Source: Klebsiella phage 05F01
Sequence record: LC483177.1
Direction: 5' to 3' (one strand)
DNA length: 64,000 nt
Of the stretch, positions 16,162 to 52,739 are shown piece by piece (within the stretch, counting starts at the first letter, position 1; every line of letters starts with the position of its first letter). Below the pieces are notes generated by a model. That model saw only the letters and a list, made by a program, of their open reading frames with translations, ran no database searches and had not been told where the DNA came from. The translations under genes and the position numbers were made by a program.

Positions 16162-17880
16162 TTAAAGTGAAGTCAAATACTTTTTAACTTCTTTTTCAAC
16201 ATTTTCTCGAATATCTTTCAAGGAAACATCTTTAACCAATACACCATCACGGAAAATAACTTCCAGTTGGTTATCTTTTGTATTGATGTCTTTAAATGAT
16301 AAACCATCTTGTAAGAAATAGCTACCATCTTCTTCATCTTTCAATACTGCAAGGAAGCCTTTTGCAGAACGTTTCTTAGCATCTGTTTTAGGTTCTTTAC
16401 TTACCAGGATTTCTTCGCCATCAATGATAGCACCTGTAGCCTTACATGCAAATCCAAATGTATCACGAGTATTGTAGTTATAAGAGAAACTACCGACACC
16501 GTATACGACATTGTTTGATGCAAACCCTTTACGTTTAAGACGGACACTAATCTCTTTGAATCGTTCTACAGAGATTGAATCACCATAAATCAATCCAATA
16601 TGAGAGTCAAGTTCTTTGTATCCTTTACTATTAACTTTTCCACCAAAAGTCTCCCATAAGCAAGAGATTGCTCCAATAGCTTCATGACGTGGGATTTCAT
16701 AATAAGGGTTAAGGCTACCATTAATCGTCTGTTCTCCAGTAATATCATAATAGGCATCCCTATCTTCTAAATAGATTACTTCTGTTAAGACATCAACACT
16801 AGAACATTGCAAGGTTTCCCAATCCTTAAAACTTTCAACATAATATCCAGCAACCACTTTAACCGGATCGCCACTATCAGGACGAATTACAAGTTTACCA
16901 TCTCGTTCCATAATCTTATCTTTAAGATTAGGTAGGATTTTAGTAACGACTGACCAAAAATCATAGCTGTCAGCTACATATGATGAATTACCTTTAGAGT
17001 AGATCTCAGTTGAATAAGTATCAATGAAATCTGTTTCCGCTAGGAAACGTAGCTGGTCAATGTCATTTTCAAGGTGTGGGAAATGCTCTTTTAGTTTATT
17101 AACAATAACACCAATATTAGTCGTCGCTACAGAGTGTTCAGATGCAGGAATACTACCACCAACAAACTCACCTTCCATATTGTAATAATCATTAGCATAC
17201 TGAATTGCAAGAACGCTATCGGTACCCATGAAACTTGCCAGATGACCAATACCAGTGTGATAACTGTCACGAATCCCAGACAAACCACGTGCAGAAAAGT
17301 CATGACATTGCCAAGGCATATGCAAAGTGTTATCACACGTGATATTAGCATATTTTTCAGCCATCAAACGATACTGGAATGCTGTAGTGGCGTTAGTGAT
17401 TACTTTCCAAGTTTCAGCAGACAGTGCTGTTTCAAAATAGTTAGTTAGCCATGCAAAATCAGGGTGAGTGTTATGAATAGTATAACATGGAACCTGAATA
17501 GGGCAAATTGTTCCTTCTGGCAGAGCACGGATTTCAATAGGAAGGTACCCCAAGTCATGAAGCTTACCAATATGAGTAACATCCATATCAACACCTAGGT
17601 AGCCTTTTACAAAGTTCTTGTATTCATTAACTACTTCTGCACGGTCACGATCAAAGAACCCTTCATTCCAAAGATCGATAATGAAGTTTTTAACAACACC
17701 CTGGATACCAACAAACAATACACCACGTGGAGCATCATCTGCATAGTGCTTGAAAAGCTTATCTGCTCGTGGGGTGAAGTTACTGAAAATCAACTCTGTC
17801 TTAGGGTGATACTGCTGAATATGTCCAATTTTATACCCATCAGTTGCAAAAAGTGGGTTAATGTTTTTAGTCTTAGTCAT
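16162..17880 (-). CDS. nadV: nicotinamide phosphoribosyltransferase family protein (NadV/Nampt-like, 572 aa); alternatively a Namat-type nicotinamide ADP-ribose transferase
   Basis: N-terminal NPLFATDGYKIGH resembling Nampt NILLATDSYKVTH; family-typical length and class-II PRTase-like features. Confidence 0.8.
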   Translation of the reverse strand: MTKTKNINPLFATDGYKIGHIQQYHPKTELIFSNFTPRADKLFKHYADDAPRGVLFVGIQGVVKNFIIDLWNEGFFDRDRAEVVNEYKNFVKGYLGVDMDVTHIGKLHDLGYLPIEIRALPEGTICPIQVPCYTIHNTHPDFAWLTNYFETALSAETWKVITNATTAFQYRLMAEKYANITCDNTLHMPWQCHDFSARGLSGIRDSYHTGIGHLASFMGTDSVLAIQYANDYYNMEGEFVGGSIPASEHSVATTNIGVIVNKLKEHFPHLENDIDQLRFLAETDFIDTYSTEIYSKGNSSYVADSYDFWSVVTKILPNLKDKIMERDGKLVIRPDSGDPVKVVAGYYVESFKDWETLQCSSVDVLTEVIYLEDRDAYYDITGEQTINGSLNPYYEIPRHEAIGAISCLWETFGGKVNSKGYKELDSHIGLIYGDSISVERFKEISVRLKRKGFASNNVVYGVGSFSYNYNTRDTFGFACKATGAIIDGEEILVSKEPKTDAKKRSAKGFLAVLKDEEDGSYFLQDGLSFKDINTKDNQLEVIFRDGVLVKDVSLKDIRENVEKEVKKYLTSL

Positions 17881-18380: not shown

Positions 18381-19259
18381 TTAACATAAAATTTGTTTTT
18401 GAACTTCTTTCTGATTTTCTACCAGAACACCTGTAGTGTTGTCAACATTATTTTCCCAAACATTGAAAGAATGAATTTTATCAATGTAAGTTGAAAGAAT
18501 ATCCACTCCTTTAGAGAAGATACCATGAGTGACATACAACTCAACCTTACCAGCATTTCGTTCTTTAAGAACTTTTGCTAGTTCAATGAACGTCCTTCCT
18601 CCATCACAGATATCATCCACGATCATAAGATTCATTCCATCAAAATCCAATACAGGGATATTAGTCTTAATGATTTCACCTGTCAAGGTGTCTCTTACTT
18701 TTTCTGCACAATGAACTTCTACACCAAGACGTTTACCAAGTTTGAAGATTTTCTTAAGAGCACCACCATCAGGACTAACCAGATGGAAAAATTCTTGCTT
18801 AATCTTCCATGCCAACATATGGAATGCAACATCATCTTGTTCAATGACAGTAAGATTGTTAATCACTGCACGTGACACATCACTGTGTGGGTCAACAACA
18901 ATCACTTCATCAAATTTAAGGCTATTTAAAATGTTTGCGAAAGCTTTAACACCAAATGCCTCTCCTGGCTCACAGAATCGATCCTGGCGGGCGTAAGGGA
19001 TATACATCATCCAAAGACACACCTTTACATCTAAACCTCTTACAACCTCATCCAGAGCGTTTTTGACCATAACCAGTTCCATGAGGTCTTGGGAGTTCTT
19101 AACTTCATGATAGACAGAAACGGTTGTGCCAACTCCTACAAGCTTATCTACATCATTCATATCAAGCTTAACATGAACTTCTCCTCCAGAGAAAACAATC
19201 TTCTCACATCTAATTTCTTCTGTTAAATATGTATACTTATTAAAAACTTCAATCTTCAT
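18381..19259 (-). CDS. prs: ribose-phosphate pyrophosphokinase family protein (Prs-like, 292 aa); alternatively an ADP-ribose pyrophosphokinase (Adps-type)
   Basis: motifs SGGEVHVKL, LMELV...IPYARQDR, PRPP-binding loop VDDICDGGRT align to E. coli Prs. Confidence 0.75.
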   Translation of the reverse strand: MKIEVFNKYTYLTEEIRCEKIVFSGGEVHVKLDMNDVDKLVGVGTTVSVYHEVKNSQDLMELVMVKNALDEVVRGLDVKVCLWMMYIPYARQDRFCEPGEAFGVKAFANILNSLKFDEVIVVDPHSDVSRAVINNLTVIEQDDVAFHMLAWKIKQEFFHLVSPDGGALKKIFKLGKRLGVEVHCAEKVRDTLTGEIIKTNIPVLDFDGMNLMIVDDICDGGRTFIELAKVLKERNAGKVELYVTHGIFSKGVDILSTYIDKIHSFNVWENNVDNTTGVLVENQKEVQKQILC

Positions 19260-25352: not shown

Positions 25353-25560
25353 TGTATGTTTAATTGGTTTTGGTGGAGAAGCTGCTTTATTTTGTTTTGA
25401 TGATGCAAGTGATTTATTTTCTATTACACAAGAAATTCAATATGAGTATGAAAGAAATCCTTTCCAAGTCAAAGAATTTATGGTTTGTTGCACAACAAAA
25501 TATTATGAAGATAGTATTATTGATGAAGTATCAGAATTACTAGAGGAGATTGGTATTTGA
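25330..25560 (+). CDS. small hypothetical protein
   Basis: track ORF. Confidence 0.35.
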   Translation: MRVYMAASVCLIGFGGEAALFCFDDASDLFSITQEIQYEYERNPFQVKEFMVCCTTKYYEDSIIDEVSELLEEIGI

Positions 25561-26867
25561 AACAGATTAAAACAACACTTTATGCACTGAATAAAAATGG
25601 TTCACATCAAAAATGGCATGTTTATGTAGATGGAAACACTATTCTTGTCCACTTTGGTCAGGATGGTGGAGCTACTCAAGTTAAGAAAACAGTATGCACA
25701 GGTAAAAATGTAGGTCGTTCAAATGAAACAACTGACGAAGAGCAAGCTGTTCTGGAAGCTATCTCTAAGTGGGAAAAGCAAGTTCGTCTTGGGTATAAGG
25801 AATCTAAAGAGGAACTAGTAACTGATTTTGTTATGTCTCCTATGCTTGCATGTGATGCTCTTAAAAAACCTAATGCAATCAAATATCCTTGCTTTGGTCA
25901 ACCTAAGCTTGATGGACTTCGTTGCTTAGTTACATTTGATGAGAATGGCACTCCTATTTTTAATAGTCGAGGCAATAAAGAGTATGCTATTAAAGGTAAG
26001 ATTGTAGAGCAAATTAAAGATATCAAAGAAAAAACTAACTTCGATATGCTTGATGGTGAAGTGTATATTCATGGTTTGCCTTTACAGAAAATCGTTGCAT
26101 TAGTTAAGAAGTGGCGTACCCATTCCGATATTGAAATTGAGATTGAAAAAGATTATCAAGGTGATATCAAACGTCGAAACAAAGCAATTAAAGATGGAGC
26201 GCCAACATATAAAAACTTTGCAAAACTTGAAGTTTCAGTTGACACTATTCCAGAGAAAGATATTCATCGATATGGTGGATATGAGAGTGCAGACTTACAA
26301 TTCCATATTTTTGATGTTCCAAGTGATCTGGAGTGGGACCCTATTGCAGACCCAGAGGCATCCTATTTAGACTACTCCCTAGAAGAATCTAGATGTAGAT
26401 ATTCAGACCTTATGGATCTAGATATCATTTCATCTGATATGTCACATATCAAAGTTGTTATGGGTAATTACTATAACACTGAAGAAGAAGTTAAGGCTGC
26501 TATAGGTTTCTTTATGGAAAATGGTTATGAAGGAATCATTGTAAGAAACCTTGATGGAGTATATGAATTTGGTCAACGTTCAAATGATTTAATCAAATGG
26601 AAGATCTTCCAGACTACAGAAGCTTTTGTTAATGGATATACTATTGACAAAAACAATGAACTTCTGTTAGAATGTGTCCTTAAATCAGGTGTGGAGTTTG
26701 GTGTTAAAATGAAAGGTTCACATGCATACCGTAGCACATGCACACACTTAGTAAATAACTTCATTACAATAAGTTTCCAAGCATATACTGTTGATGGTGC
26801 ACCTCAATTCGCAGTAGGAATTTCTGAACGTGATGTAAACCCAGAGACTTGGGAACCATTAGAATAA
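25557..26867 (+). CDS. lig: ATP-dependent DNA ligase (non-ATG start in track)
   Basis: adenylation motif I KLDGLR; size 436 aa; OB-fold-sized C-terminus. Confidence 0.75.
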   Translation: MKQIKTTLYALNKNGSHQKWHVYVDGNTILVHFGQDGGATQVKKTVCTGKNVGRSNETTDEEQAVLEAISKWEKQVRLGYKESKEELVTDFVMSPMLACDALKKPNAIKYPCFGQPKLDGLRCLVTFDENGTPIFNSRGNKEYAIKGKIVEQIKDIKEKTNFDMLDGEVYIHGLPLQKIVALVKKWRTHSDIEIEIEKDYQGDIKRRNKAIKDGAPTYKNFAKLEVSVDTIPEKDIHRYGGYESADLQFHIFDVPSDLEWDPIADPEASYLDYSLEESRCRYSDLMDLDIISSDMSHIKVVMGNYYNTEEEVKAAIGFFMENGYEGIIVRNLDGVYEFGQRSNDLIKWKIFQTTEAFVNGYTIDKNNELLLECVLKSGVEFGVKMKGSHAYRSTCTHLVNNFITISFQAYTVDGAPQFAVGISERDVNPETWEPLE

Positions 26868-26883
26868 TAAATAAGGAGAGAAA

Positions 26884-27612
26884 GTGATTAAAGATTTCTT
26901 TAAAGATATTAAAGTAGATAATAATTTTTACATTGAATGCGCAAATAAAGTTGTAGAATGGAACCAAACTGCACAAGGTGTGTCTTCTAGTGAAGATGAG
27001 GACTTTTCAAATGAGAAGTTTCTTCTACAGATTAAACTTGTCGAAGAAGAATTAAAAGAGTACCGTGATGCAGCTAATGTTAATGACCATGTAGAACTGC
27101 TTGATGCAGCAGGAGATATTTTTGTTGTGGCATCTTATCTATCTTATATGTTCTTTGGTAATGCAGCCATTAATGATGTTCTAACTCAACCTGTAGGTGA
27201 TCGTCTTGCAGATGATCCATACGAAACATTCATTAAGTCACAAGAATTTATGGATAAGACATCAGAGAATTCTAGCTTTGGTCTTGGTATGTTAGCTTGT
27301 GCTGTAACACGTATGGCACGTGATACACTTGTTAAATCTGTGTATAACGATAAAAAAGTTATGAAGGAAATTCTTCGTAGTAATTACTCAAAATTCCCTA
27401 CTGCAAAAGTATTAATTAATAAGTGGGAAGTAGGTACTATAGAAGAAGCATTGAAAATTGAGGTTGATTGGATTGAAGAGAATCGCGATTACTCTGGTAT
27501 TACATACAAATTTAATCCTACAAATGGTTTGTATGTTTTCTTTGATGAAAATGGTAAGATCATGAAACCTTCTGTATTCAGCGGTCCAGACATCAAATCT
27601 ATTGTTGGCTAA
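26884..27612 (+). CDS. putative MazG-like all-alpha nucleotide pyrophosphohydrolase
   Basis: EEELKEY...ELLDAAGD acidic helix pairs typical of the MazG/HisE fold; weak. Confidence 0.35.
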   Translation: MIKDFFKDIKVDNNFYIECANKVVEWNQTAQGVSSSEDEDFSNEKFLLQIKLVEEELKEYRDAANVNDHVELLDAAGDIFVVASYLSYMFFGNAAINDVLTQPVGDRLADDPYETFIKSQEFMDKTSENSSFGLGMLACAVTRMARDTLVKSVYNDKKVMKEILRSNYSKFPTAKVLINKWEVGTIEEALKIEVDWIEENRDYSGITYKFNPTNGLYVFFDENGKIMKPSVFSGPDIKSIVG

Positions 27613-38606: not shown

Positions 38607-38830
38607 TGGAAGCAATGATAAGTAGTCAGAAAAGTATCAGGTTAGGGGGTTTAGCTTATATGCTGCTGGAAACAGCAGCTAAAGAAAAATGCCCTTTTGC
38701 ATATAAAGAGAATATTAAATCATTCGAGTCACAACCTGATTCTTTCACTTTCTGTGGTGTGATCTATGTTAAAGAGGAAGAGAAGTCTTTATTCAATTCA
38801 GTAAAAAGTATTTGGGAGAGCTATTCTTGA
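38606..38830 (+). CDS. small hypothetical protein (74 aa)
   Basis: track ORF. Confidence 0.4.
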
Positions 38831-39810
38831 GATATCTTATTACAGGAGGATTAGGTTTCATAGGAAGTGCTGTAGTTAGAAAACTACTTGAAAGTAAGGA
38901 TAATGTAGTAGGAATTATTGATTCAGAAACCTATGCGGCAGATAGCAGAAATGTTCCACTATTCTTTGTAGATTATTTTAATGTTGACTTATCTAACAAA
39001 GATGATGTAAATTCTGTTGTTAAAGAATTTAATCCAGATTATGTAATGCACCTTGCTGCGGAGAGTCATGTAGATAATTCAATAAAGTCACCTTCATTGT
39101 TTATTGAATCTAATATCATAGGTACTTTTAATCTACTAGAGGCTGTCCGTTTCTACGCACCCAATTTAATTAAATTCCATCACATTTCTACCGATGAAGT
39201 GTATGGAGACCTTAGTGACAGAGAAGAACTGAATTCACTGTTTAAGGAGACAGATGCATATGATCCTAGCAGCCCTTACTCTGCTTCGAAAGCAGCAAGT
39301 GACCATCTGGTGAGGGCATGGCACCGAACTTACGGTTTACCTACGGTAATCACCAATTGTTCAAATAACTATGGACCATATCATCACCCGGAGAAGCTGA
39401 TTCCACGTGTAATCACAAATGCTCTTTTGGGTAAGGAAATTCCTATCTATGGTGCAGGTAGTCAAATTCGTGATTGGCTCTATGTAGAAGACCATGCAAA
39501 GGCACTGATTACTGCCGTAATGAATGCTGTTCCTGGTAGCACCTATAATATAGGTGGACATAACGAAAGGTCTAACTTACGTGTAGTAGAAATAATTCTT
39601 AATCTCCTTAAAGATAAGACAGGCAAAGACTACACTCACTTAATTAAATACGTTACAGATCGTCCTGGTCATGATTTAAGGTATGCTATTGATGCCACCA
39701 AGATTGGTGATGAATTAGGTTGGCATCCAGAAGAAACTTTTGAATCTGGTATTGATAAAACAGTAACATGGTATCTTGAAAATAGAGAATGGTGGGAGGG
39801 CAAGATTTGA
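38812..39810 (+). CDS. rmlB: dTDP-glucose 4,6-dehydratase (RmlB); true start probably TTG at 38827 ([14 protein letters not shown])
   Basis: Rossmann TGGxGFIGS; SDR extended family; YxxxK catalytic motif (YSASK). Confidence 0.85.
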
Positions 39811-40673
39811 AAGGTATTATTTTAGCTGGCGGGAGTGGTACCCGCCTATACCCAATAACAAAAGGTGTAAGTAAACAGCTACTACCAATTTATGATAAGC
39901 CAATGATTTACTACCCACTATCAGTTCTTATGTTAGCTGATATTAGAGAAATTCTAATTATTACAACTAGAGAAGATCAAGATAACTTCGTATCATTGCT
40001 AGGGGATGGCAGCAGCATAGGTATTAGTCTATCTTATGCTATTCAAGACCAACCTAAAGGTTTAGCTGAAGCTTTCATTATTGGTGAGGACTTTATTGAC
40101 GGAGATGATGTTGCACTTGTATTAGGTGACAACCTCTTTTTCGGTCAAGGTTTTAGTAGCAAGCTGAATAGAGCTAAAGACTTAGTTAGTCACTCTGGAG
40201 GTGCTGTTTTATTTGGTTATGAAGTAAAAGACCCTGAAAGATTTGGTGTAGTAGAGTTTAAAGGTAATGAGGTAATTAGCATTGAGGAAAAACCTGCCAA
40301 TCCTAAGTCTAATTGTGCAGTAACAGGACTATATTTTTATGACCACACTGTAGTGGAAAAAGCAAAAAGTATTTCTCCATCCATCCGGGGTGAACTTGAG
40401 ATCACTGACATCAATAATCTATACTTAATTGATGAAAATCTCTCAGTAGAGGTATTAGGGAGAGGTTTTGCATGGTTAGACACAGGCACCCATGAGAGTA
40501 TGTTAGATGCATCACAATTTGTTAGAACAATACAAAAGCAACAAGGTATGTATGTCGCATGTTTAGAGGAGATTGCGTATAAAAAGGGCTGGATAGGTAA
40601 GAAAACTCTTTTAGAGATATCTAAATCTATGTTAAAGAATGACTATGGACAATACATTATGGAGCTAATATGA
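39789..40673 (+). CDS. rmlA: glucose-1-phosphate thymidylyltransferase (RmlA)
   Basis: [16 protein letters not shown] signature; start overlaps rmlB stop. Confidence 0.85.
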
Positions 40674-41245
40674 TGATTCAAAATGCAGGTGCAGATGGAC
40701 TATATGTCATTACACCTGATGTTTTTAAAGACTCACGAGGATATTTTCTAGAGACAAGTAATAATATCACATATAAAGATATTCTCAATGGAGAGTCTTT
40801 TGTTCAGAGTAATGCATCCCTTTCTAAGAAAGGGGTGTTACGTGGGCTACATTATCAAACTAAAAATGTTCAAGGTAAGTTGGTTTCTGTTAGCAATGGT
40901 TCTGTTATAGATGTGGTGGTAGACTTAAGAAAAGAGTCAGATACTTATCTTAAGTACTTTACTCAGTTCCTTTCATCTGATAATAACTTACAATTTTATG
41001 TCCCACCAGGTTTTGCTCATGGATTTGTATCTCTTGAAGAAAATACAAGGTTTGAATATAAATGCACAGACTACTACGCACCAAAGAGTGAAAAAACATT
41101 GTTGTGGTCTGACTCTGATATAGGTATAGATTGGGATAGTATTCTATATGAATTCAACCTTGACTATTTCATCCTCTCAGATAAAGACCAAAGAGGACTA
41201 ACTCTTAAGGAGATTTTGATTGAAAATCCTAGTATTTGGGGCTAA
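40670..41245 (+). CDS. rmlC: dTDP-4-dehydrorhamnose 3,5-epimerase (RmlC)
   Basis: cupin RmlC blocks: [17 protein letters not shown]...GFAHGF. Confidence 0.8.
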
Positions 41246-42029
41246 TGGTCAACTTGGAAGTATCTTTTGTGAAAAATACAGAGATCTGTCTGTCCCTTTA
41301 ACATCAAAAGATGTTGACATAACTAACTACAATGATGTAAGATATGCACTATTAAACATTAAGCCTGATATTGTCATTAACTGTGCTGCATACACTGATG
41401 TAGCTAAAGCAGAAGTTGATTTAGACTTGGCTTACAATGTAAATGCTACTGGTGCTTATTCTATATCATCAATCTCTAAAGAGATTTCAGCAAAAGTTAT
41501 CCACATATCTACAGATTATGTATATAATCAAGATGGCCCTATCTATGTAGGTGATAAAACAAACCCAATAAATAATTATGGTAAGACAAAGTTAGATGGG
41601 GACAAATTAGTATCCTATGCAGATAAGAATAACTTAGTGATAAGAACCGGTTCATTATTTTCTGACAGAGGTAAAAATTTCATTCTAACTTTGATAAATG
41701 CATATAAAAATGGCAAGATGGATTTTGATATTGTTGATGATATGTTATCAAGACCTACATCTGCATTTGATCTAGCTGATGTAATCTATAAAAATAGGGA
41801 TTTATCTGGGACAGTTCATTTTTCAGGGGACACATTAATATCATGGTATGACTATGCTAAATTGATATTTAAATTTGACCCATTAGTTAAGATTAATGCC
41901 GTAAAATCTGCTGAATCAAAAGTAAAAAGACCAATGGTATCTGACCTCATTTCTACACCTATCTTTGATGTATCTGATTTTAAATATAATCTAGAAAAAA
42001 CACTAACACTACTTGGAGTATCTAAATGA
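41220..42029 (+). CDS. rmlD: dTDP-4-dehydrorhamnose reductase (RmlD), TTG start overlapping rmlC
   Basis: [15 protein letters not shown]-terminus; about 270 aa. Confidence 0.8.
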   Translation: MKILVFGANGQLGSIFCEKYRDLSVPLTSKDVDITNYNDVRYALLNIKPDIVINCAAYTDVAKAEVDLDLAYNVNATGAYSISSISKEISAKVIHISTDYVYNQDGPIYVGDKTNPINNYGKTKLDGDKLVSYADKNNLVIRTGSLFSDRGKNFILTLINAYKNGKMDFDIVDDMLSRPTSAFDLADVIYKNRDLSGTVHFSGDTLISWYDYAKLIFKFDPLVKINAVKSAESKVKRPMVSDLISTPIFDVSDFKYNLEKTLTLLGVSK

Positions 42030-46444: not shown

Positions 46445-47116
46445 ATGAACAGAAATATTGCATACAAACGTGTATCAACAGACCAGCAAGATACTGAAAG
46501 ACAGTTCCACAACTCAGGTATGGTTTTTGATCTTGAATTTGAAGAGAAACTCTCTGGTAAAAATACAGACCGCCCTGAACTAAAGAAATGTCTATCAGTA
46601 CTTTGCAAAGGTGATACACTACATGTTTGGGAAGTTAGTCGTCTTTCTCGTAACCTGACTGATACTCGTGAGATTGTGTTCTCTCTCTTAGATAGAGGGG
46701 TAAGCATTAAATTTCATAAGGAGGGATTGGAGTTTGTTTCAGGTAGTGAAGATGGTATGAAGGATGCTATCAGCAAAATGATGCTTAACGTAATGGGCAG
46801 TTTTGCTGAATTTGAAAGGTCATTGATTTGTGGTAGAGTTAAAGAAGGTGTTGCAGTAGCTAAAAGTAAAGGAATATTAATGGGAGCAGCAAACCCTAAG
46901 TATAATAGAACTGATTATTCTAAAAAGAATGCAGCTAAAAAATCCTATGAATTTGCACTCACACTGAAAGAATCTTTAGTGTCTTATCGTCAAAAAGGGT
47001 TATCTTTTTTGACTATTGCTGAAAGGTTAAATGAAGCGGGAAAAACTACAAATAAAGGTAGTGAGTTTAAAGCAATGACTGTAAAAAGGTTATGTGAAAA
47101 ATTGGAGATCAAATGA
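46445..47116 (+). CDS. serine recombinase (resolvase/invertase family) with C-terminal HTH
   Basis: catalytic N-terminus IAYKRVSTDQQDTERQ; 223 aa. Confidence 0.75.
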   Translation: MNRNIAYKRVSTDQQDTERQFHNSGMVFDLEFEEKLSGKNTDRPELKKCLSVLCKGDTLHVWEVSRLSRNLTDTREIVFSLLDRGVSIKFHKEGLEFVSGSEDGMKDAISKMMLNVMGSFAEFERSLICGRVKEGVAVAKSKGILMGAANPKYNRTDYSKKNAAKKSYEFALTLKESLVSYRQKGLSFLTIAERLNEAGKTTNKGSEFKAMTVKRLCEKLEIK

Positions 47117-47316
47117 CAGAAGCTATCACAGACACTTTCCAATCGAGAGAAGAGATGATTAGGAAGTTAAATTTCCTGTTGATGACAGGTGGCACAAACG
47201 ATGCCAGAATTATTAGGGGAAATGGTATTTACCAATTAACCTTTACTAAAAATATTAATACATTTGATGGAGAATTTGATGAACTTAGTAGCTCACAAAC
47301 ACTTGAAACTACCTGA
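47113..47316 (+). CDS. small hypothetical protein
   Basis: track ORF. Confidence 0.3.
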   Translation: MTEAITDTFQSREEMIRKLNFLLMTGGTNDARIIRGNGIYQLTFTKNINTFDGEFDELSSSQTLETT

Positions 47317-48016
47317 TGACAAGCGCCTGTTCATCATCGGAGATTTACATGGTTGTTGGGACCTGTATAAAAAAGGCACTAAGGTGTTGGGTATTGATAA
47401 TGACGATATCGTAATATCTCTTGGGGATTTAGTTGATCGTGGACCTGAAGCATTTAAATGTGTATTAGAGTTCACCCGTAAAGAGAATAGATATGCTATC
47501 ATGGGTAATCATGAGCATATGTTAGTAAAAGGCATGCTTGATGGTGACCGAAGTTACTATGAATGCTGGTACCAAAATGGTGGTAATGTCCTCTGGGATC
47601 AATTTGATGAAGAAGGCGTTACATTAATAGCCAGTATGCTAGAAAACCTTCCTGTAATCCTAACAGTAGAGTATCGTGGGATGGTACTTGCTTTTTCTCA
47701 TGGAGGCTGGTGTGCTCAGTTAAGTTATTATTCTCCATATGAGTTAGGGAGTCTATTAACACAGAAAAATAACGACAATATCCTGGAAGCAATTATGTGG
47801 GACAGAGATAGCATCAGGTGTGCAATGGAAGAGTATCCTGTAGGTGATGTTAAAGATGTTGATTACATTTTTCATGGTCACTCTTATGTAAAAGAACCAA
47901 TCATTCACCATAACCGTGTTTATATGGATACTGGTAGCTGTTTTAATGGCAACCTCACATTTGCATCGTTTGATAAAAGAGATTTGTGGTTTTATTCAAC
48001 ATTAGAGGAAGATTAA
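47264..48016 (+). CDS. Ser/Thr protein phosphatase (lambda PPase-like metallophosphatase)
   Basis: GDLHG, GDLVDRG, GNHE motifs. Confidence 0.75.
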   Translation: MMENLMNLVAHKHLKLPDDKRLFIIGDLHGCWDLYKKGTKVLGIDNDDIVISLGDLVDRGPEAFKCVLEFTRKENRYAIMGNHEHMLVKGMLDGDRSYYECWYQNGGNVLWDQFDEEGVTLIASMLENLPVILTVEYRGMVLAFSHGGWCAQLSYYSPYELGSLLTQKNNDNILEAIMWDRDSIRCAMEEYPVGDVKDVDYIFHGHSYVKEPIIHHNRVYMDTGSCFNGNLTFASFDKRDLWFYSTLEED

Positions 48017-48260: not shown

Positions 48261-48445
48261 TTAAAGTTACACTTACTGAAACTCTAGGTAAGATGTCAAA
48301 TTCTATCAGCATAGAATCTGAAGATATCAATATAATTAATGCTTTTCTTGAATCAAAAGGTGAAAGAGTAATCACTTCATTTGAGTGTAGTTTTCCTAAT
48401 AACTTAGATAAAGATAAATTAAAGAGGGTATTAGATGACATTTAA
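48257..48445 (+). CDS. small hypothetical protein
   Basis: track ORF. Confidence 0.35.
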   Translation: MIKVTLTETLGKMSNSISIESEDINIINAFLESKGERVITSFECSFPNNLDKDKLKRVLDDI

Positions 48446-49001
48446 ATATTACACTGGAGTAGGTAGTAGAGATGTATCTGAAGAAGAATGGAATCTAATG
48501 GTAGGTATCGGTAAGTGGTTAGCTAATAAAGGGTATTGGTTACGTAGTGGCAAAGCCGAAGGGAGTGACAGTGCATTTGAATTTGGTGTGTCTCAATCTG
48601 AAAATGTAAATAATAAAGAGATCTACATCCCTTGGTCTACATTTAAAGGCAATCAATTAGATGGTGAGGTTATTGTGCTTTCTGGACCAACTACTGATAA
48701 CTTTGCTATCTCAAGTGATTGGGTTAGACGTATACATAAATACCCTGATGGATTGAAACAAGGTGCATTTAAATTACATCAAAGAAATATCCATCAAGTT
48801 TTAGGGAAAGATCTAACCACACCTAATCCATCTACATTCTTACTTGCTTGTGCAGATCTAGAAAAGGACCTTGAAACACCCACTGGTGGTACAAGAACTG
48901 CTTGGGTATTAGCTAAACAGTTTGGCGTTCCTTGCTTAAATGTACGAGGTAAAACAAAGAAAGAAATATTCGACTGGCTAAAACAATTTGTTGACATCTA
49001 A
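48435..49001 (+). CDS. putative SLOG/DprA-like Rossmann-fold nucleotide-binding protein
   Basis: GVGSRD...RSGKAEGSDSAF glycine-rich pattern; weak. Confidence 0.3.
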   Translation: MTFKYYTGVGSRDVSEEEWNLMVGIGKWLANKGYWLRSGKAEGSDSAFEFGVSQSENVNNKEIYIPWSTFKGNQLDGEVIVLSGPTTDNFAISSDWVRRIHKYPDGLKQGAFKLHQRNIHQVLGKDLTTPNPSTFLLACADLEKDLETPTGGTRTAWVLAKQFGVPCLNVRGKTKKEIFDWLKQFVDI

Positions 49002-49467: not shown

Positions 49468-49812
49468 ATGGTAACAAAAACAAAGTTTGACTCTATAGCA
49501 ACACTGTACCGACTATGTCGTGCTAGTATGGTTAGTCAGTTAAAGTTACAAGGATTGAGCGACTTAAAAATTGCGCATTCCCTAACACTTACAAAAAATA
49601 CTCTGTTATCTTTTATTAAATGCACAGAGGACACAAGTACCATACCTTTTGTATTAGATGCACCACAATATATGTTTGCTAATCGTGAAGTAACACCCAC
49701 TACATATATTGATATTCAAGTGATGGGTCTTGATACTTATCCCCTCTCTAATGGTACCGCTCTGTTGGTAGACCCTGTGACAAGAGAATTCTGTTATGTT
49801 TTTTTGGGATGA
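49468..49812 (+). CDS. hypothetical protein (114 aa)
   Basis: track ORF. Confidence 0.4.
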   Translation: MVTKTKFDSIATLYRLCRASMVSQLKLQGLSDLKIAHSLTLTKNTLLSFIKCTEDTSTIPFVLDAPQYMFANREVTPTTYIDIQVMGLDTYPLSNGTALLVDPVTREFCYVFLG

Positions 49813-49982
49813 GGTAGGACAATCTTCCAATCCATACCAAACGCATTGGGAAGCTTTATATGCATCCAGATGCTATATGCAGGGCTTGGCTGGAGATGCA
49901 TTAAGTATGGCAGAAGAAATGAATGAAAATATGCAGTTATATGGTACAATAGATAAACCTAAAAATAAATAAAGGAGAATGT

Positions 49983-50774
49983 ATGCGTAGGGTTATTTTA
50001 ATTAGTGGGGCAGGATTAAGTGTAGAAAGTGGTATACGTGCATTCAGAACAGATACTGAAAGTGGCAAAGCATTGTGGGTTTCAAATGATTTTAATTCTG
50101 ATACTGGTGAAAGCAAAGAAGTTCAATATAAGGTAGAAGAGGTTTGTGATATTCATGCTTTCAGGGGTAATTTTTACCACAAAACTCACTCTTTCTATAA
50201 CAAAAGACGGGAAGAATTGTCAACAGTTCACCCTAATGCAGCACATCTACAGATTGGTGAATGGTTTAATAAATACCCAGGACAAGTAATTAATATTTCA
50301 ACTAACGTAGATGATCTTCTGGAAAGAAGCGGAATCCCACGTGATGAAGTAATTCATGTTCACGGCTTCCTGAAAGAGTTGAGGTATAAACTAAATGAAG
50401 GGGATGAGGAATCCATTGTTGATATTGGATATACACAAATTGAACCTGATGACTATCATTGGGCTAAACCTAATGTAGTATTCTTTGGTGAAGCTGCACC
50501 TTTATATGCTGATATGTATAATGTGTTTGATAGTCTAACTAGTCAAGATATGGTGATAGTTGTAGGTTGTTCTAACCAAGTGATTAATTTCAATTGGGAA
50601 CTCTTTCCTTCACTATCAAAAGGTGTAAAAATGTTAGTTGTCAATAATGGGATTAACTACCTTGAACAAGAGTTATATGAAAACAACGGAGTTCTTGTTT
50701 ATTATGCAGGTGCGGTTGAGACATTTACTAACAAAAATTTCATTAAACTGATCGAAAAACATTTGGAGGGTTAG
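49983..50774 (+). CDS. Sir2-family (sirtuin-like) NAD-binding protein lacking the zinc-ribbon cysteines
   Basis: ISGAGLSVESGIRAFR matches sirtuin GAGISxxSGIPxFR; later NxDxL and HG blocks; no CxxC pairs. Confidence 0.55.
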   Translation: MRRVILISGAGLSVESGIRAFRTDTESGKALWVSNDFNSDTGESKEVQYKVEEVCDIHAFRGNFYHKTHSFYNKRREELSTVHPNAAHLQIGEWFNKYPGQVINISTNVDDLLERSGIPRDEVIHVHGFLKELRYKLNEGDEESIVDIGYTQIEPDDYHWAKPNVVFFGEAAPLYADMYNVFDSLTSQDMVIVVGCSNQVINFNWELFPSLSKGVKMLVVNNGINYLEQELYENNGVLVYYAGAVETFTNKNFIKLIEKHLEG

Positions 50775-50776
50775 TA

Positions 50777-51103
50777 ATGAATTACTATATTATTTCACAA
50801 GCAGTTTTCCCAATTTTTCTGGTTTTACTTACTTTAGGATATTTTCTAAGTGCTAAGGTAAATTCATACAAGAAAGAAGAACTATCTGGCCCACTTGGTG
50901 GGCTAACTAAAAGTGTTGGTCTTAAATTTGCAACAATTACATTCTACTTATTTGACCTTACAGTTAGTGTAGTTCTCTTTGCAATAGCAGCGAGTGAATG
51001 GTGGTATGTTATTCTTCTTATTATTGAGGTATTCATCTACCTTGCTGTTTGTTTGCAAGCTAATAAGAACCTAAATAAATTGTCATCCATAAAAACTTCA
51101 TAA
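50777..51103 (+). CDS. small integral membrane protein (3 TM)
   Basis: hydrophobic segments. Confidence 0.45.
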   Translation: MNYYIISQAVFPIFLVLLTLGYFLSAKVNSYKKEELSGPLGGLTKSVGLKFATITFYLFDLTVSVVLFAIAASEWWYVILLIIEVFIYLAVCLQANKNLNKLSSIKTS

Positions 51104-51104
51104 A

Positions 51105-51132
51105 ACAAAGGAGCCTTTCGGCTCCTTTTTTA
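51105..51132. terminator. bidirectional intrinsic terminator GGAGCC-UUUCG-GCUCC flanked by A-run/T-run between convergent genes
   Basis: hairpin with poly-A upstream and poly-T downstream. Confidence 0.65.
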
Positions 51133-51354
51133 TTTTCCTTTACTATATAATTCTATAACTAACTCATCGCTATCATCTATCCTGGATAGGTATTGTTCAT
51201 TAATTACTACATCCTCATACTTGAATGGTTTCTCATAAACACAAGCCCAATCTCCCATCCCAATATAGCCATTAACAAAGACTTTATCTCCCGGTTTGAA
51301 TTTATCTAAACCAAAAACGATAGCCTGGCACCCTTCCATTAGTGGTAAACTCAT
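51130..51354 (-). CDS. small hypothetical protein (74 aa)
   Basis: track ORF. Confidence 0.4.
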   Translation of the reverse strand: MSLPLMEGCQAIVFGLDKFKPGDKVFVNGYIGMGDWACVYEKPFKYEDVVINEQYLSRIDDSDELVIELYSKGK

Positions 51355-51836
51355 AACACCTCCGACACAATTTTAATGGTCTCTAAGTAACGACTGATCC
51401 TCCGTTTATCTCCACTTTGAATAGAGCAAGTCAAGTTACACAACGAATCAGATAGCTTCACTTTAACTGCAACCTTATCTACAGTCAACCAGTTTAAGTA
51501 TTCTTTACGTGTGATGCTATCACCTTTAGTCAGATACCCAACTGATTTGCAGATAGCTAAGGATTCCTCTTGAGTGAATAACCCCTTTTTCTCAAAGTTA
51601 AGCATCATCTCTGCCATATCCATTCGTGCTAATGATTTATCTCCTGCATCTTCAATTAAGTCATGGAGCATAGAAACTACCCAGATAACTTTGTCCTCAC
51701 CCCATAGGTCTTCACTCTTTGATGTCACCATCTCTAAATGGTAAAGGTAAGGATGTTCACCATACTTCTGGTCTCCATGCCATTTATTCACTAAAGCATA
51801 AACACTTTCTTTTATTTCTGAATCAATATAATTCAT
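51351..51836 (-). CDS. HD-domain phosphohydrolase (possible small alarmone/(p)ppGpp hydrolase-like)
   Basis: H...HD...D pattern: EHPYLYHLEMV, MLHDLIEDAGD; track ORF 51351..51896 trimmed to MNYIDSEIK because 5' part is a terminator hairpin. Confidence 0.4.
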   Translation of the reverse strand: MNYIDSEIKESVYALVNKWHGDQKYGEHPYLYHLEMVTSKSEDLWGEDKVIWVVSMLHDLIEDAGDKSLARMDMAEMMLNFEKKGLFTQEESLAICKSVGYLTKGDSITRKEYLNWLTVDKVAVKVKLSDSLCNLTCSIQSGDKRRISRYLETIKIVSEVL

Positions 51837-51851
51837 ATCATCTCCTATAAA

Positions 51852-51886
51852 CGAAAAAAGGACCAAGAGTTTCCTCAAGGTCCTTA
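51852..51886 (-). terminator. intrinsic terminator AAGGACC...GGUCCUU plus U-run on minus strand
   Basis: 7-bp stem plus T-run. Confidence 0.5.
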
Positions 51887-51895
51887 ACAATAACA

Positions 51896-52153
51896 TTATT
51901 TTGAAACGTAGTAAAGTAGTAAAGCTAAAATTATAATGAGAATGATGTTTTTAAAAACACTTCCTCCACTAGCTCGCTTAGTCTCATAACTCAACCCGGT
52001 TCCTGGCAAACCTACAGTAGTCTTCGTTCCGTTTCTATTAACATTTGCAGTAAGTCCGTTTCCACCAACAGAAACTGAGTTTACACCTTTCTTACCAAAG
52101 TTAATGTATACACCAGGAATTACTTTTATGCGTTTCCTAAATCTCAGTCCCAT
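51896..52153 (-). CDS. Gly-rich small protein with C-terminal TM anchor (85 aa)
   Basis: track ORF. Confidence 0.4.
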   Translation of the reverse strand: MGLRFRKRIKVIPGVYINFGKKGVNSVSVGGNGLTANVNRNGTKTTVGLPGTGLSYETKRASGGSVFKNIILIIILALLLYYVSK

Positions 52154-52448: not shown

Positions 52449-52739
52449 TTACTCTACCTCACCAATTAACTTACTATAGTGACGATAATGATACACCTTT
52501 TTAACCTTGTTTGCAATAGCTTCTTCAGATGGTAGGAAAGAAAAATCTTCTTCATCGTTAAGAAGTTGAATAATTCCCATTACATCATTTAACTCATCAT
52601 GTAGACGTTGAATATTTGACTTTTGGTTTCCTGTCTGTTGCTCATACATGCCAAATTGTTGACATTTATGCGCCATCTGTGCAACTTCAACACACTCTTC
52701 TGCAAGTTTTGTTAGAAGGTATTGGACATTATTCATCAT
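52449..52739 (-). CDS. hypothetical protein (96 aa)
   Basis: track ORF. Confidence 0.4.
   Translation of the reverse strand: MMNNVQYLLTKLAEECVEVAQMAHKCQQFGMYEQQTGNQKSNIQRLHDELNDVMGIIQLLNDEEDFSFLPSEEAIANKVKKVYHYRHYSKLIGEVE

Follow-up and report, generated by a model that had tools for sequence, protein, structure and literature searches.

Zinc-less sirtuins of phages have been reported before. A 2016 paper on the Vibrio phages phiSt2 and phiGrn1 found that the zinc ligands of sirtuins are absent from the phage protein, also in KVP40, named T5 among the carriers, tied the phage sirtuin to nicotinamide adenine dinucleotide (NAD) salvage based on NAMPT and proposed a deacetylase role (PMC5107563). 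Iyer et al. 2022 recognised 'a distinct clade' of phage sirtuins, e.g. those of rV5, Mydo, SP15 and Serratia BF, and predicted for it a KptA/Tpt1-like role in RNA repair from gene neighbourhoods (PMC9503650). Neither the lack of the zinc site nor the connection with NAD salvage is thus new to the literature (PMC5107563, PMC9503650). Here we analysed a Sir2-family gene of Klebsiella phage 05F01, located in a stretch of 64,000 nucleotides of record LC483177.1 (the window), together with the adjacent gene for a small membrane protein, TM108. The results showed that the Sir2 protein is a divergent new member of the known and widely annotated family of zinc-less phage sirtuins (PHROG 2162), and its identities and PHROG 2162 match place it by sequence in the clade of Iyer et al. 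2022.

In profile searches, the Sir2 protein (N-terminus MRRVILISGAGLSVESGIRAFR) matched the Pfam family SIR2, PF02146, at E=2.9e-19, scoring 70.2 bits where the cut-off is 24 and covering positions 1-178 of the 180 in the profile; this was the sole Pfam family reported for it at E<=1. A full-length match was obtained with phrog_2162, 'Sir2 (NAD-dependent deacetylase)', in PHROG (E=1.1e-95). CobB (1s5p) was the top PDB match both by sequence and by fold, with E=6e-14 for the single sequence and E=1.3e-28 with the family profile, and in the profile search it was followed by two archaeal proteins, Sir2Af2 and Sir2Af1, and, after these, by SIRT5. An AlphaFold2 model was built from 56 homologues and reached a predicted local distance difference test score (pLDDT) of 89.9 and a predicted template modelling score (pTM) of 0.86. 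When this model was compared with the PDB by Foldseek, CobB was again the best match (E=1.4e-17, template modelling (TM) score 0.73/0.84), with Sir2Af1 and SIRT5 also found, and the matches to CobB, Sir2Af1, SIRT5 and Sir2Tm ranged from E 1e-17 to 1e-12 with TM scores up to 0.84. The model, with its Rossmann fold and small domain, is superimposable on solved sirtuins. A preliminary description of this DNA had proposed structure prediction to confirm the Sir2 fold and had named an unrelated Rossmann family lacking a Sir2 core as the outcome that would overturn it; the best fold matches were sirtuins, Pfam returned SIR2 only, and a DHS-like or TPP-binding assignment was ruled out, since Sir2 profiles alone matched.

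The sirtuin NAD-binding signature that had been noticed at the N-terminus was located at residues 7-22 (ISGAGLSVESGIRAFR), and the downstream NxDxL and HG blocks, also reported earlier, were found as N108-V-D110-D-L112 and then H127-G128. Thus the NAD-binding GAGxS...SGIxxFR, the N and D of (T)QNxD and the catalytic His of HG are all present in the protein. Residue conservation was scored in the 56 homologues, down to about 55% identity, and showed that G9, A10, G11, S13, S16, F21, R22, Y72, R75, R76, N85 and H88 are invariant, as are T107, N108, V109, D110, H127, G128, F167, F168, E170, G195, S197 and N221. Identification of the catalytic His and Asn had been suggested as a check; the catalytic His is H127 and the Asn of (T)QNxD is N108, both in this invariant set. 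The FYNKRR segment of the phage protein aligns with FYNARR of CobB (Y72-x-x-R75), and a Tyr-x-x-Arg motif forms the pocket in which the class III sirtuins SIRT5 and CobB recognise acidic acyl groups. When compared with two relatives, the Sir2 gene gave a ratio of nonsynonymous to synonymous substitution rates (dN/dS) of 0.09-0.14, indicating that it is under purifying selection.

The zinc ribbon is missing, as had been noted from the letters. The only cysteines are C55 and C196, which are widely separated and neither of which falls in the segment aligned with the zinc cysteines of CobB, and residues 128-166 are without any Cys. The zinc-less label is correct because this CobB segment aligns to other residues, with RC of CobB replaced by RY and CHCC by YHWA in the phage protein. 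Across the 56 proteins, residues 128-166 hold no Cys in 31, one in 24 and two in 1, and the four-Cys site, the structural zinc site of sirtuins, is found in none of them (0/56), the 05F01 protein likewise lacking it. The beta strands of the zinc-site region are nevertheless kept in the model, at residues 128-136, 144-147 and 160-165.

No match to the PADLOC defence models was found at E<=1 for either Sir2 or TM108. A defence-type Sir2 (ThsA, DSR1/2, Sir2-HerA, SPARSA) was rejected on this result, on the PF02146-only Pfam assignment and on the orphan status of the adjacent TM108; the immunity-type NADase context raised in the preliminary description is disfavoured by the first two of these. A CobB orthologue was also ruled out, with NCBIfam CobB equivalog scores far under their cut-offs. 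Because the SIR2 matches are clear, the CobB equivalog scores low and PADLOC matches lacking, we conclude that the protein is a genuine sirtuin belonging to the CobB/SIRT5 (class III) branch, but that it is not an orthologue of CobB and not a Sir2 of the defence type.

The 05F01 gene carries an in-frame insertion of 14 residues (Table 1), which is missing from its three closest relatives; a similar insert (…ND…TGESKE…) is found in the more distant P0068/L008 homologue, 59% identical (L numbers denote loci of the census described below). Judged from the alignment with CobB, the insertion probably separates the NAD-binding motif from the helical module and would thus fall in the cofactor-binding loop region; the model is less confident there (pLDDT 61-75). 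Nucleotide identity of the gene to L004 is 97-100% over most of its length and drops to about 80% around the insertion, which suggests a small recombination patch.

To place the gene among phages, homologues were collected by tblastn, and 980 of 50,697 phage records were found to contain one, 907 of them nearly full-length, so the rarity implied in the preliminary description did not hold. The carriers include T5-like Demerecviridae, Vequintavirinae/Mydovirus, rV5-like phages, Vibrio and KVP40-like phages and jumbo phages, and the homologues, at a top identity of 65%, are usually annotated as 'Sir2-like' or 'NAD-dependent deacetylase'. The 05F01 protein is 63% identical to that of Mydovirus KB57, 49-58% to those of rV5-like and T5-like phages and 39% to that of Serratia BF. 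BFVD contains predicted structures for phage sirtuins of this kind. The coordinates of the locus and of related genes in the window are collected in Table 1.

Table 1. Features of the Sir2 locus and of functionally related genes in the 05F01 window
Feature	Position	Strand	Remarks
NadV, nicotinamide phosphoribosyltransferase	16162..17880	-	PHROG 448, E=4.4e-195; ~32 kb from Sir2
Prs, ribose-phosphate pyrophosphokinase	18381..19259	-	PHROG 619, E=4.2e-87; phosphoribosyl pyrophosphate (PRPP) for NadV
Metallophos, calcineurin/NinI-like phosphoesterase	47264-48016		2.7 kb upstream of Sir2
DprA-like gene (PHROG 768)	48435-49001		
Ribosome-binding site AAGGAG for Sir2	49972..49977	+	5 nucleotides 5' of ATG; read from sequence
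Sir2-family gene, zinc-less	49983..50774	+	263 residues; ATG start; open reading frame plus profile and structure matches
Key residues of the Sir2 protein			GAGLS 9-13, F21/R22, Y72/R75, N108/D110, H127 (catalytic), FFGE 167-170, S197, N221
In-frame insertion in Sir2, 42 nucleotides	50079..50120	+	14 residues, 33-46 (VSNDFNSDTGESKE), after W32; from alignments
Ribosome-binding site GGAGG for TM108	50765..50769	+	within the Sir2 3' end; read from sequence
TM108, membrane protein	50777..51103	+	108 residues; three hydrophobic segments, ~3-26, 49-72, 75-95 (hydropathy)
Terminator-like bidirectional hairpin	51107..51128	both	AAAGGAGCC-TTTC-GGCTCCTTT plus T run; terminator scan
HD phosphohydrolase	51351-51896	-	weak RelA/SpoT-type HD similarity; 76-80% identical in close relatives
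MazG-like gene	52449-52739	-	

With respect to function, the best explanation, at about even odds, is that the protein is an active NAD-consuming sirtuin of the deacylase type whose nicotinamide would be recycled by NadV and Prs. It would bind NAD+, cleave off nicotinamide and transfer the ADP-ribose to an oxygen nucleophile held beside Y72/R75; if the substrate is a lysine of a host or phage protein that bears an acetyl or acidic acyl group, this would amount to CobB-like deacylation, and the phage NadV would convert the released nicotinamide to nicotinamide mononucleotide (NMN), using the PRPP made by Prs. This reading is supported by the intact NAD+ site, catalytic His and class III pocket and by the purifying selection on the gene, and a 2016 paper proposed the same deacetylase role for the homologues of KVP40 and phiSt2 that lack zinc ligands (PMC5107563). 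The most likely substrate, at even chances or slightly below, is an acylated lysine in a protein of the host or the phage, which is preferred because deacylases are the nearest proteins by sequence and fold, the FGE loop and Y-x-x-R are intact, and NadV and Prs are encoded. A deacylase or ADP-ribosyl-transferring activity, which the preliminary description had offered, is still plausible with the catalytic core intact.

The NadV/Prs pair that the same description had pointed out was found, with both genes on the minus strand, and NadV is a candidate for recycling the nicotinamide that Sir2 would release. In 6 of 14 Mydovirus-type loci, NadV/Prs lie 5-8 kb upstream of Sir2. It has been reported that in E. 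coli the formation of a CobB-Prs complex stimulates deacetylation and shields CobB from nicotinamide inhibition (bioRxiv 10.1101/2020.12.09.417477). NadV and Prs may also act in counter-defence, as NAD+ reconstitution independent of Sir2, and NARP2 is described as converting nicotinamide to NAD+ (PMC13464706). As a side observation, 13 tRNA genes (Phe, Leu x2, Pro, Cys, Gly, Thr, Gln, Asn, Tyr, Ser, Arg and Met) adjoin NadV/Prs at 12487-16073 on the minus strand.

Several results weigh against a CobB-like deacylase coupled to NAD salvage. The NCBIfam model prot_deacyl_CobB scored 70 bits against a cut-off of 320, and the best subfamily model 87 against 243. The Gln of TQNxD is replaced by Thr (T107) in all 56 homologues, and after GTS the V-Y-P of CobB, whose V-x-P touches the peptide substrate, is V-I-N-F family-wide; because of these two changes the substrate cleft may differ from that of CobB. 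In T5-like carriers, neither NadV nor Prs lies closer than 10 kb to Sir2, and a coupling to salvage is therefore not a general feature. Furthermore, no published biochemical characterisation of any phage sirtuin of the PHROG 2162 family was found in the literature, and an RNA substrate was argued by Iyer et al. 2022 from gene neighbourhoods (PMC9503650).

According to that proposal, the enzyme would work in RNA repair like Tpt1/KptA, moving ADP-ribose to a 2'-phosphate of RNA that has been broken or religated, with the His aiding attack by the 2''-OH of the ADP-ribose and Y72/R75 holding the phosphate in place of a carboxylate. It was predicted for the same clade (rV5, Mydo, SP15, Serratia BF; PMC9503650), and the two-step chemistry of Tpt1 formally parallels that of sirtuins (PMC11417386). 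To compare the neighbourhoods, a census was made of 66 Sir2 loci (56 of them fetched additionally) plus the 05F01 window, which reproduced the published contexts. In Mydovirus and relatives, Sir2 stands together with phosphoesterase, RNA ligase, kinase, DNA ligase and MazG genes, with NadV/Prs in some; in T5-like phages, it stands with PhoH, NrdD and a HAD 'Swiss-army-knife' phosphatase, the latter about 1 kb from Sir2. The window belongs to a third type, in which Sir2 lies 1.5-7.5 kb from a pair formed by a NinI-like metallophosphatase and a DprA-like protein (PHROG 768), and which also occurs in lineages with no more than 46-60% identity in Sir2. The neighbourhoods of the clade of Iyer et al. 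contain RNA ligase, kinase, cREC, MazG, HAD or calcineurin-like phosphoesterase genes; near the window Sir2 there are the calcineurin-like phosphoesterase upstream and the HD and MazG-like genes just downstream, and the full contexts are found in relatives. The RNA ligase gene of KB57 is situated some 2 kb upstream of Sir2, and the phosphoesterase, DNA ligase and MazG genes that flank this region are kept in the window; however, searches with the KB57 proteins found no RNA ligase or ATPase/kinase homologue in the 64 kb, nor is there a counterpart in the window of the HAD_PNKP gene of L006. The DNA ligase/MazG block of the window (25557-27612) has no Sir2 beside it, Sir2 being 23 kb away. In addition, the neighbours are general nucleotide-metabolism genes that occur in early phage regions, the class III Y-x-x-R and FGE loop fit acyl-lysine binding equally well, and no experimental test of the RNA-repair prediction was found in the literature. 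Tpt1-like RNA repair accounts for the Mydovirus-type and T5-type contexts and is parallel in chemistry; we regard it as a serious rival but as unlikely for this enzyme, whose window has neither the ligase nor the kinase. About as unlikely is the broader idea that the zinc-less phage sirtuins, that of 05F01 among them, are not protein deacylases and instead use a phosphate or some other nucleophile outside proteins, e.g. by removing RNA 2'-phosphates when host-inflicted cuts in tRNA or mRNA are repaired, the class III Tyr/Arg pocket then serving to hold the phosphate; if true, these proteins would be a second, convergent Tpt1-type enzyme on the sirtuin fold.

Other observations were made on the genes of this neighbourhood. 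The NinI-like/DprA-like pair, with its genes about 1 kb apart, was seen on either side of Sir2 in L008, L016-L018, L021-L022, L055-L057 and L063-L066; the DprA-like protein gave no informative match in Pfam or, by sequence, in the PDB. A gene for a serine-recombinase (resolvase)-like protein of 223 residues (46445-47116, +) is 97-99% identical in L004/L006 with dN/dS 0.01-0.04, and is the best-conserved gene of the Sir2 neighbourhood. Immediately upstream of Sir2, at 49468-49972 (+), two open reading frames (ORFs) of 114 and 58 residues correspond to a single gene of 167 residues in L004, which is missing from L006. The split is caused by one additional T in the window, where a run of T at about 49797-49803 has seven letters (T7) instead of six (T6), with about 98-99% nucleotide identity elsewhere; it reflects a recent frameshift or else an error in sequencing the homopolymer. 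On the other side, an HD phosphohydrolase and a DUF4236 protein are encoded at 51351-52153 (-), converging on the Sir2 operon.

Another possibility is that the protein is an ADP-ribosyltransferase acting on a protein or small molecule, or a plain NAD+ glycohydrolase, which would take part in host takeover like T4 Alt/Mod and carry out no deacylation. SirTM and, weakly, Sir2Tm ADP-ribosylate proteins (PMC8120803); the NAD site of the phage protein is intact, and the family-specific changes in the cleft, Q to T107 and the loss of V-x-P, would be compatible with such an activity. Nevertheless, the SirTM group is marked by a Gln in place of the catalytic His and by an operon with a MacroD-type hydrolase (PMC8120803), and with H127 kept and no macrodomain partner found among the scanned neighbours, membership of SirTM was ruled out. 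The nearest proteins by sequence and fold are moreover bona fide deacylases, so that an enzyme of this kind is rather improbable here.

The membrane gene next to Sir2 had led the preliminary description to propose a two-gene cassette. As it had stated, an ORF of 108 residues with three hydrophobic segments is found beside Sir2, but the genes are not linked by ATGA: between the Sir2 stop TAG (50772-50774) and the ATG of TM108 at 50777 stand the two letters TA, a 2-nucleotide spacer with no overlap. The hairpin listed in Table 1 ends the Sir2/TM108 unit and also serves the converging minus-strand genes, and co-transcription of the two genes is suggested by position only. TM108 is a real gene, with copies in the same position that are 88% identical in L004 and 61% in L006 and a dN/dS of 0.19 against L004. 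In the census it was found only in the window and in L004-L007, close relatives of the window. No tblastn match to TM108 was obtained among the 50,697 phage records, even at E<=1, and when 1.84 billion representative proteins were searched exhaustively with phmmer, one genuine relative emerged; a second match, to a protein of 1137 residues, covered 22 residues (1 of 17 short stretches) and was judged spurious. Searches of Pfam, PHROG, PADLOC and NCBIfam with TM108 gave chance-level matches only, e.g. Cpta_toxin at E=0.31.

Should the two genes form a module, the sirtuin would make or consume an NAD-derived signal and TM108 would act at the membrane, in superinfection exclusion or an abortive response. 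The 2-nucleotide spacing at the end of one terminator-closed transcription unit and the joint retention of both genes in L004-L007 are in favour of such a module, as is the stronger divergence of Sir2 (77-82%) and TM108 (61%) between the window and L006 compared with 89-97% for most flanking genes, although other neighbouring genes are equally diverged between the two. Against it, TM108 has its single relative among 1.84e9 representative proteins and none in phage genomes, neither protein matched a PADLOC model, the Sir2 protein falls in PF02146, the family of characterised deacylases, and the gene after Sir2 is unrelated to TM108 and usually soluble in 61 other loci. This gene is usually DNA ligase in Mydovirus-type loci, a soluble ORF of 60 residues in most T5-type loci, where it bears a W-x-DGSWCYR motif and runs across the Sir2 stop, and assorted soluble ORFs in the remaining loci; in the T5-type loci L019 and L047 a small hydrophobic ORF follows Sir2, unrelated to TM108. 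A conserved membrane partner of Sir2 was thus ruled out across the 66 loci, and the cassette is not supported because TM108 is an orphan and the genes after Sir2 differ among loci. We conclude that TM108 is a clade-specific accessory ORF at the shared operon end, with no sign of functional partnership; a signalling module of the two genes is very improbable, and Sir2 plus TM108 as a new exclusion module of the 05F01 clade is still less likely than a phosphate or other non-protein substrate for the enzyme. In T5-type phages, the ORF of about 60 residues (L002 4755-4937, L003 4816-4998) overlaps the Sir2 stop by 10-26 nucleotides and is annotated as a T5.104 homologue; as a candidate for a conserved companion of Sir2, this W-x-DGSWCYR ORF is to be preferred to TM108.

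Finally, a dead decoy (a decoy was an option of the preliminary description) or an NAD+-binding sponge might be suggested by the lost structural zinc site as a sign of decay, but is extremely unlikely because the catalytic and NAD-contact residues are invariant and dN/dS is about 0.1, with a fold predicted at high confidence.

The window as a whole encodes terminase, portal, DNA ligase, a DNA polymerase exonuclease subunit, ribonucleotide reductase and thymidylate synthase, and several of its genes are common to Mydovirus KB57. No useful match of near-identical DNA was found in the phage genome collection for the Sir2 locus or the surrounding 24 kb, and by this search the phage is new in its DNA; metagenome contigs of about 140 kb show the same local gene order as the window. 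A nucleotide-sugar block at 38812-42029 (+), with two epimerase-like ORFs and a dTDP-4-dehydrorhamnose 3,5-epimerase, is placed between the ribonucleotide reductase genes and an endolysin-like gene, and might serve DNA or surface sugar modification.

Many bacterial defences destroy NAD+, and phages rebuild it, so a phage enzyme that spends NAD+ is of topical interest, and knowledge of its substrate, whether acyl group, RNA or another, would inform early-gene biology. About 2% of sequenced phage genomes (the 980 records mentioned above) carry a sirtuin of this family, including model T5-like and rV5-like phages. The 05F01 copy contributes little more than one further divergent sequence with an inserted loop, in a genomic context that is new, and the question of function would be better addressed in T5 or rV5.

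Compared with the known systems, the phage sirtuin is predicted to resemble Tpt1/KptA in its NAD+-consuming, two-step ADP-ribosyl transfer with release of nicotinamide (PMC9503650), whereas the fold of Tpt1/KptA is unrelated and belongs to the ADP-ribosyltransferase (ART) superfamily (PMC9503650), and the 05F01 window has no RNA ligase/kinase. The sirtuin of KVP40/phiSt2/phiGrn1 likewise has no zinc ligands and stands in a genome with NAD salvage by NAMPT/NadV (PMC5107563), but it is distant in sequence, with Vibrio phage F86, among the matches listed, about 40% identical over 83% of the query; NMNAT occurs alongside the sirtuin in KVP40-type phages, and NadV plus Prs in the 05F01 window. With E. 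coli CobB (1S5P, 6RXJ), an NAD-dependent deacetylase/desuccinylase, the phage protein has the motifs GAGxSxESGIRxFR, FYNxRR, PNAAH, NxD, HG and FGE in common, while it is only about 24% identical, has lost all zinc Cys, and carries TTN for TQN and V-I-N-F for V-Y-P. The closest likeness is with the T5 'Sir2-like' family (DT571/2 sir2, Mydovirus KB57_107, rV5-like 'cobB'), with which the 05F01 protein shares full-length homology (46-65% identity to isolates and IMG/VR loci), the same invariant motifs, no zinc Cys and a site among early nucleotide-metabolism genes. The 05F01 protein differs from this family in being at most 65% identical to any sequenced isolate, in its 14-residue insertion and in the orphan membrane gene that follows it, and its gene lies about 23 kb from the DNA ligase gene, whereas the KB57 Sir2 gene directly precedes DNA ligase.

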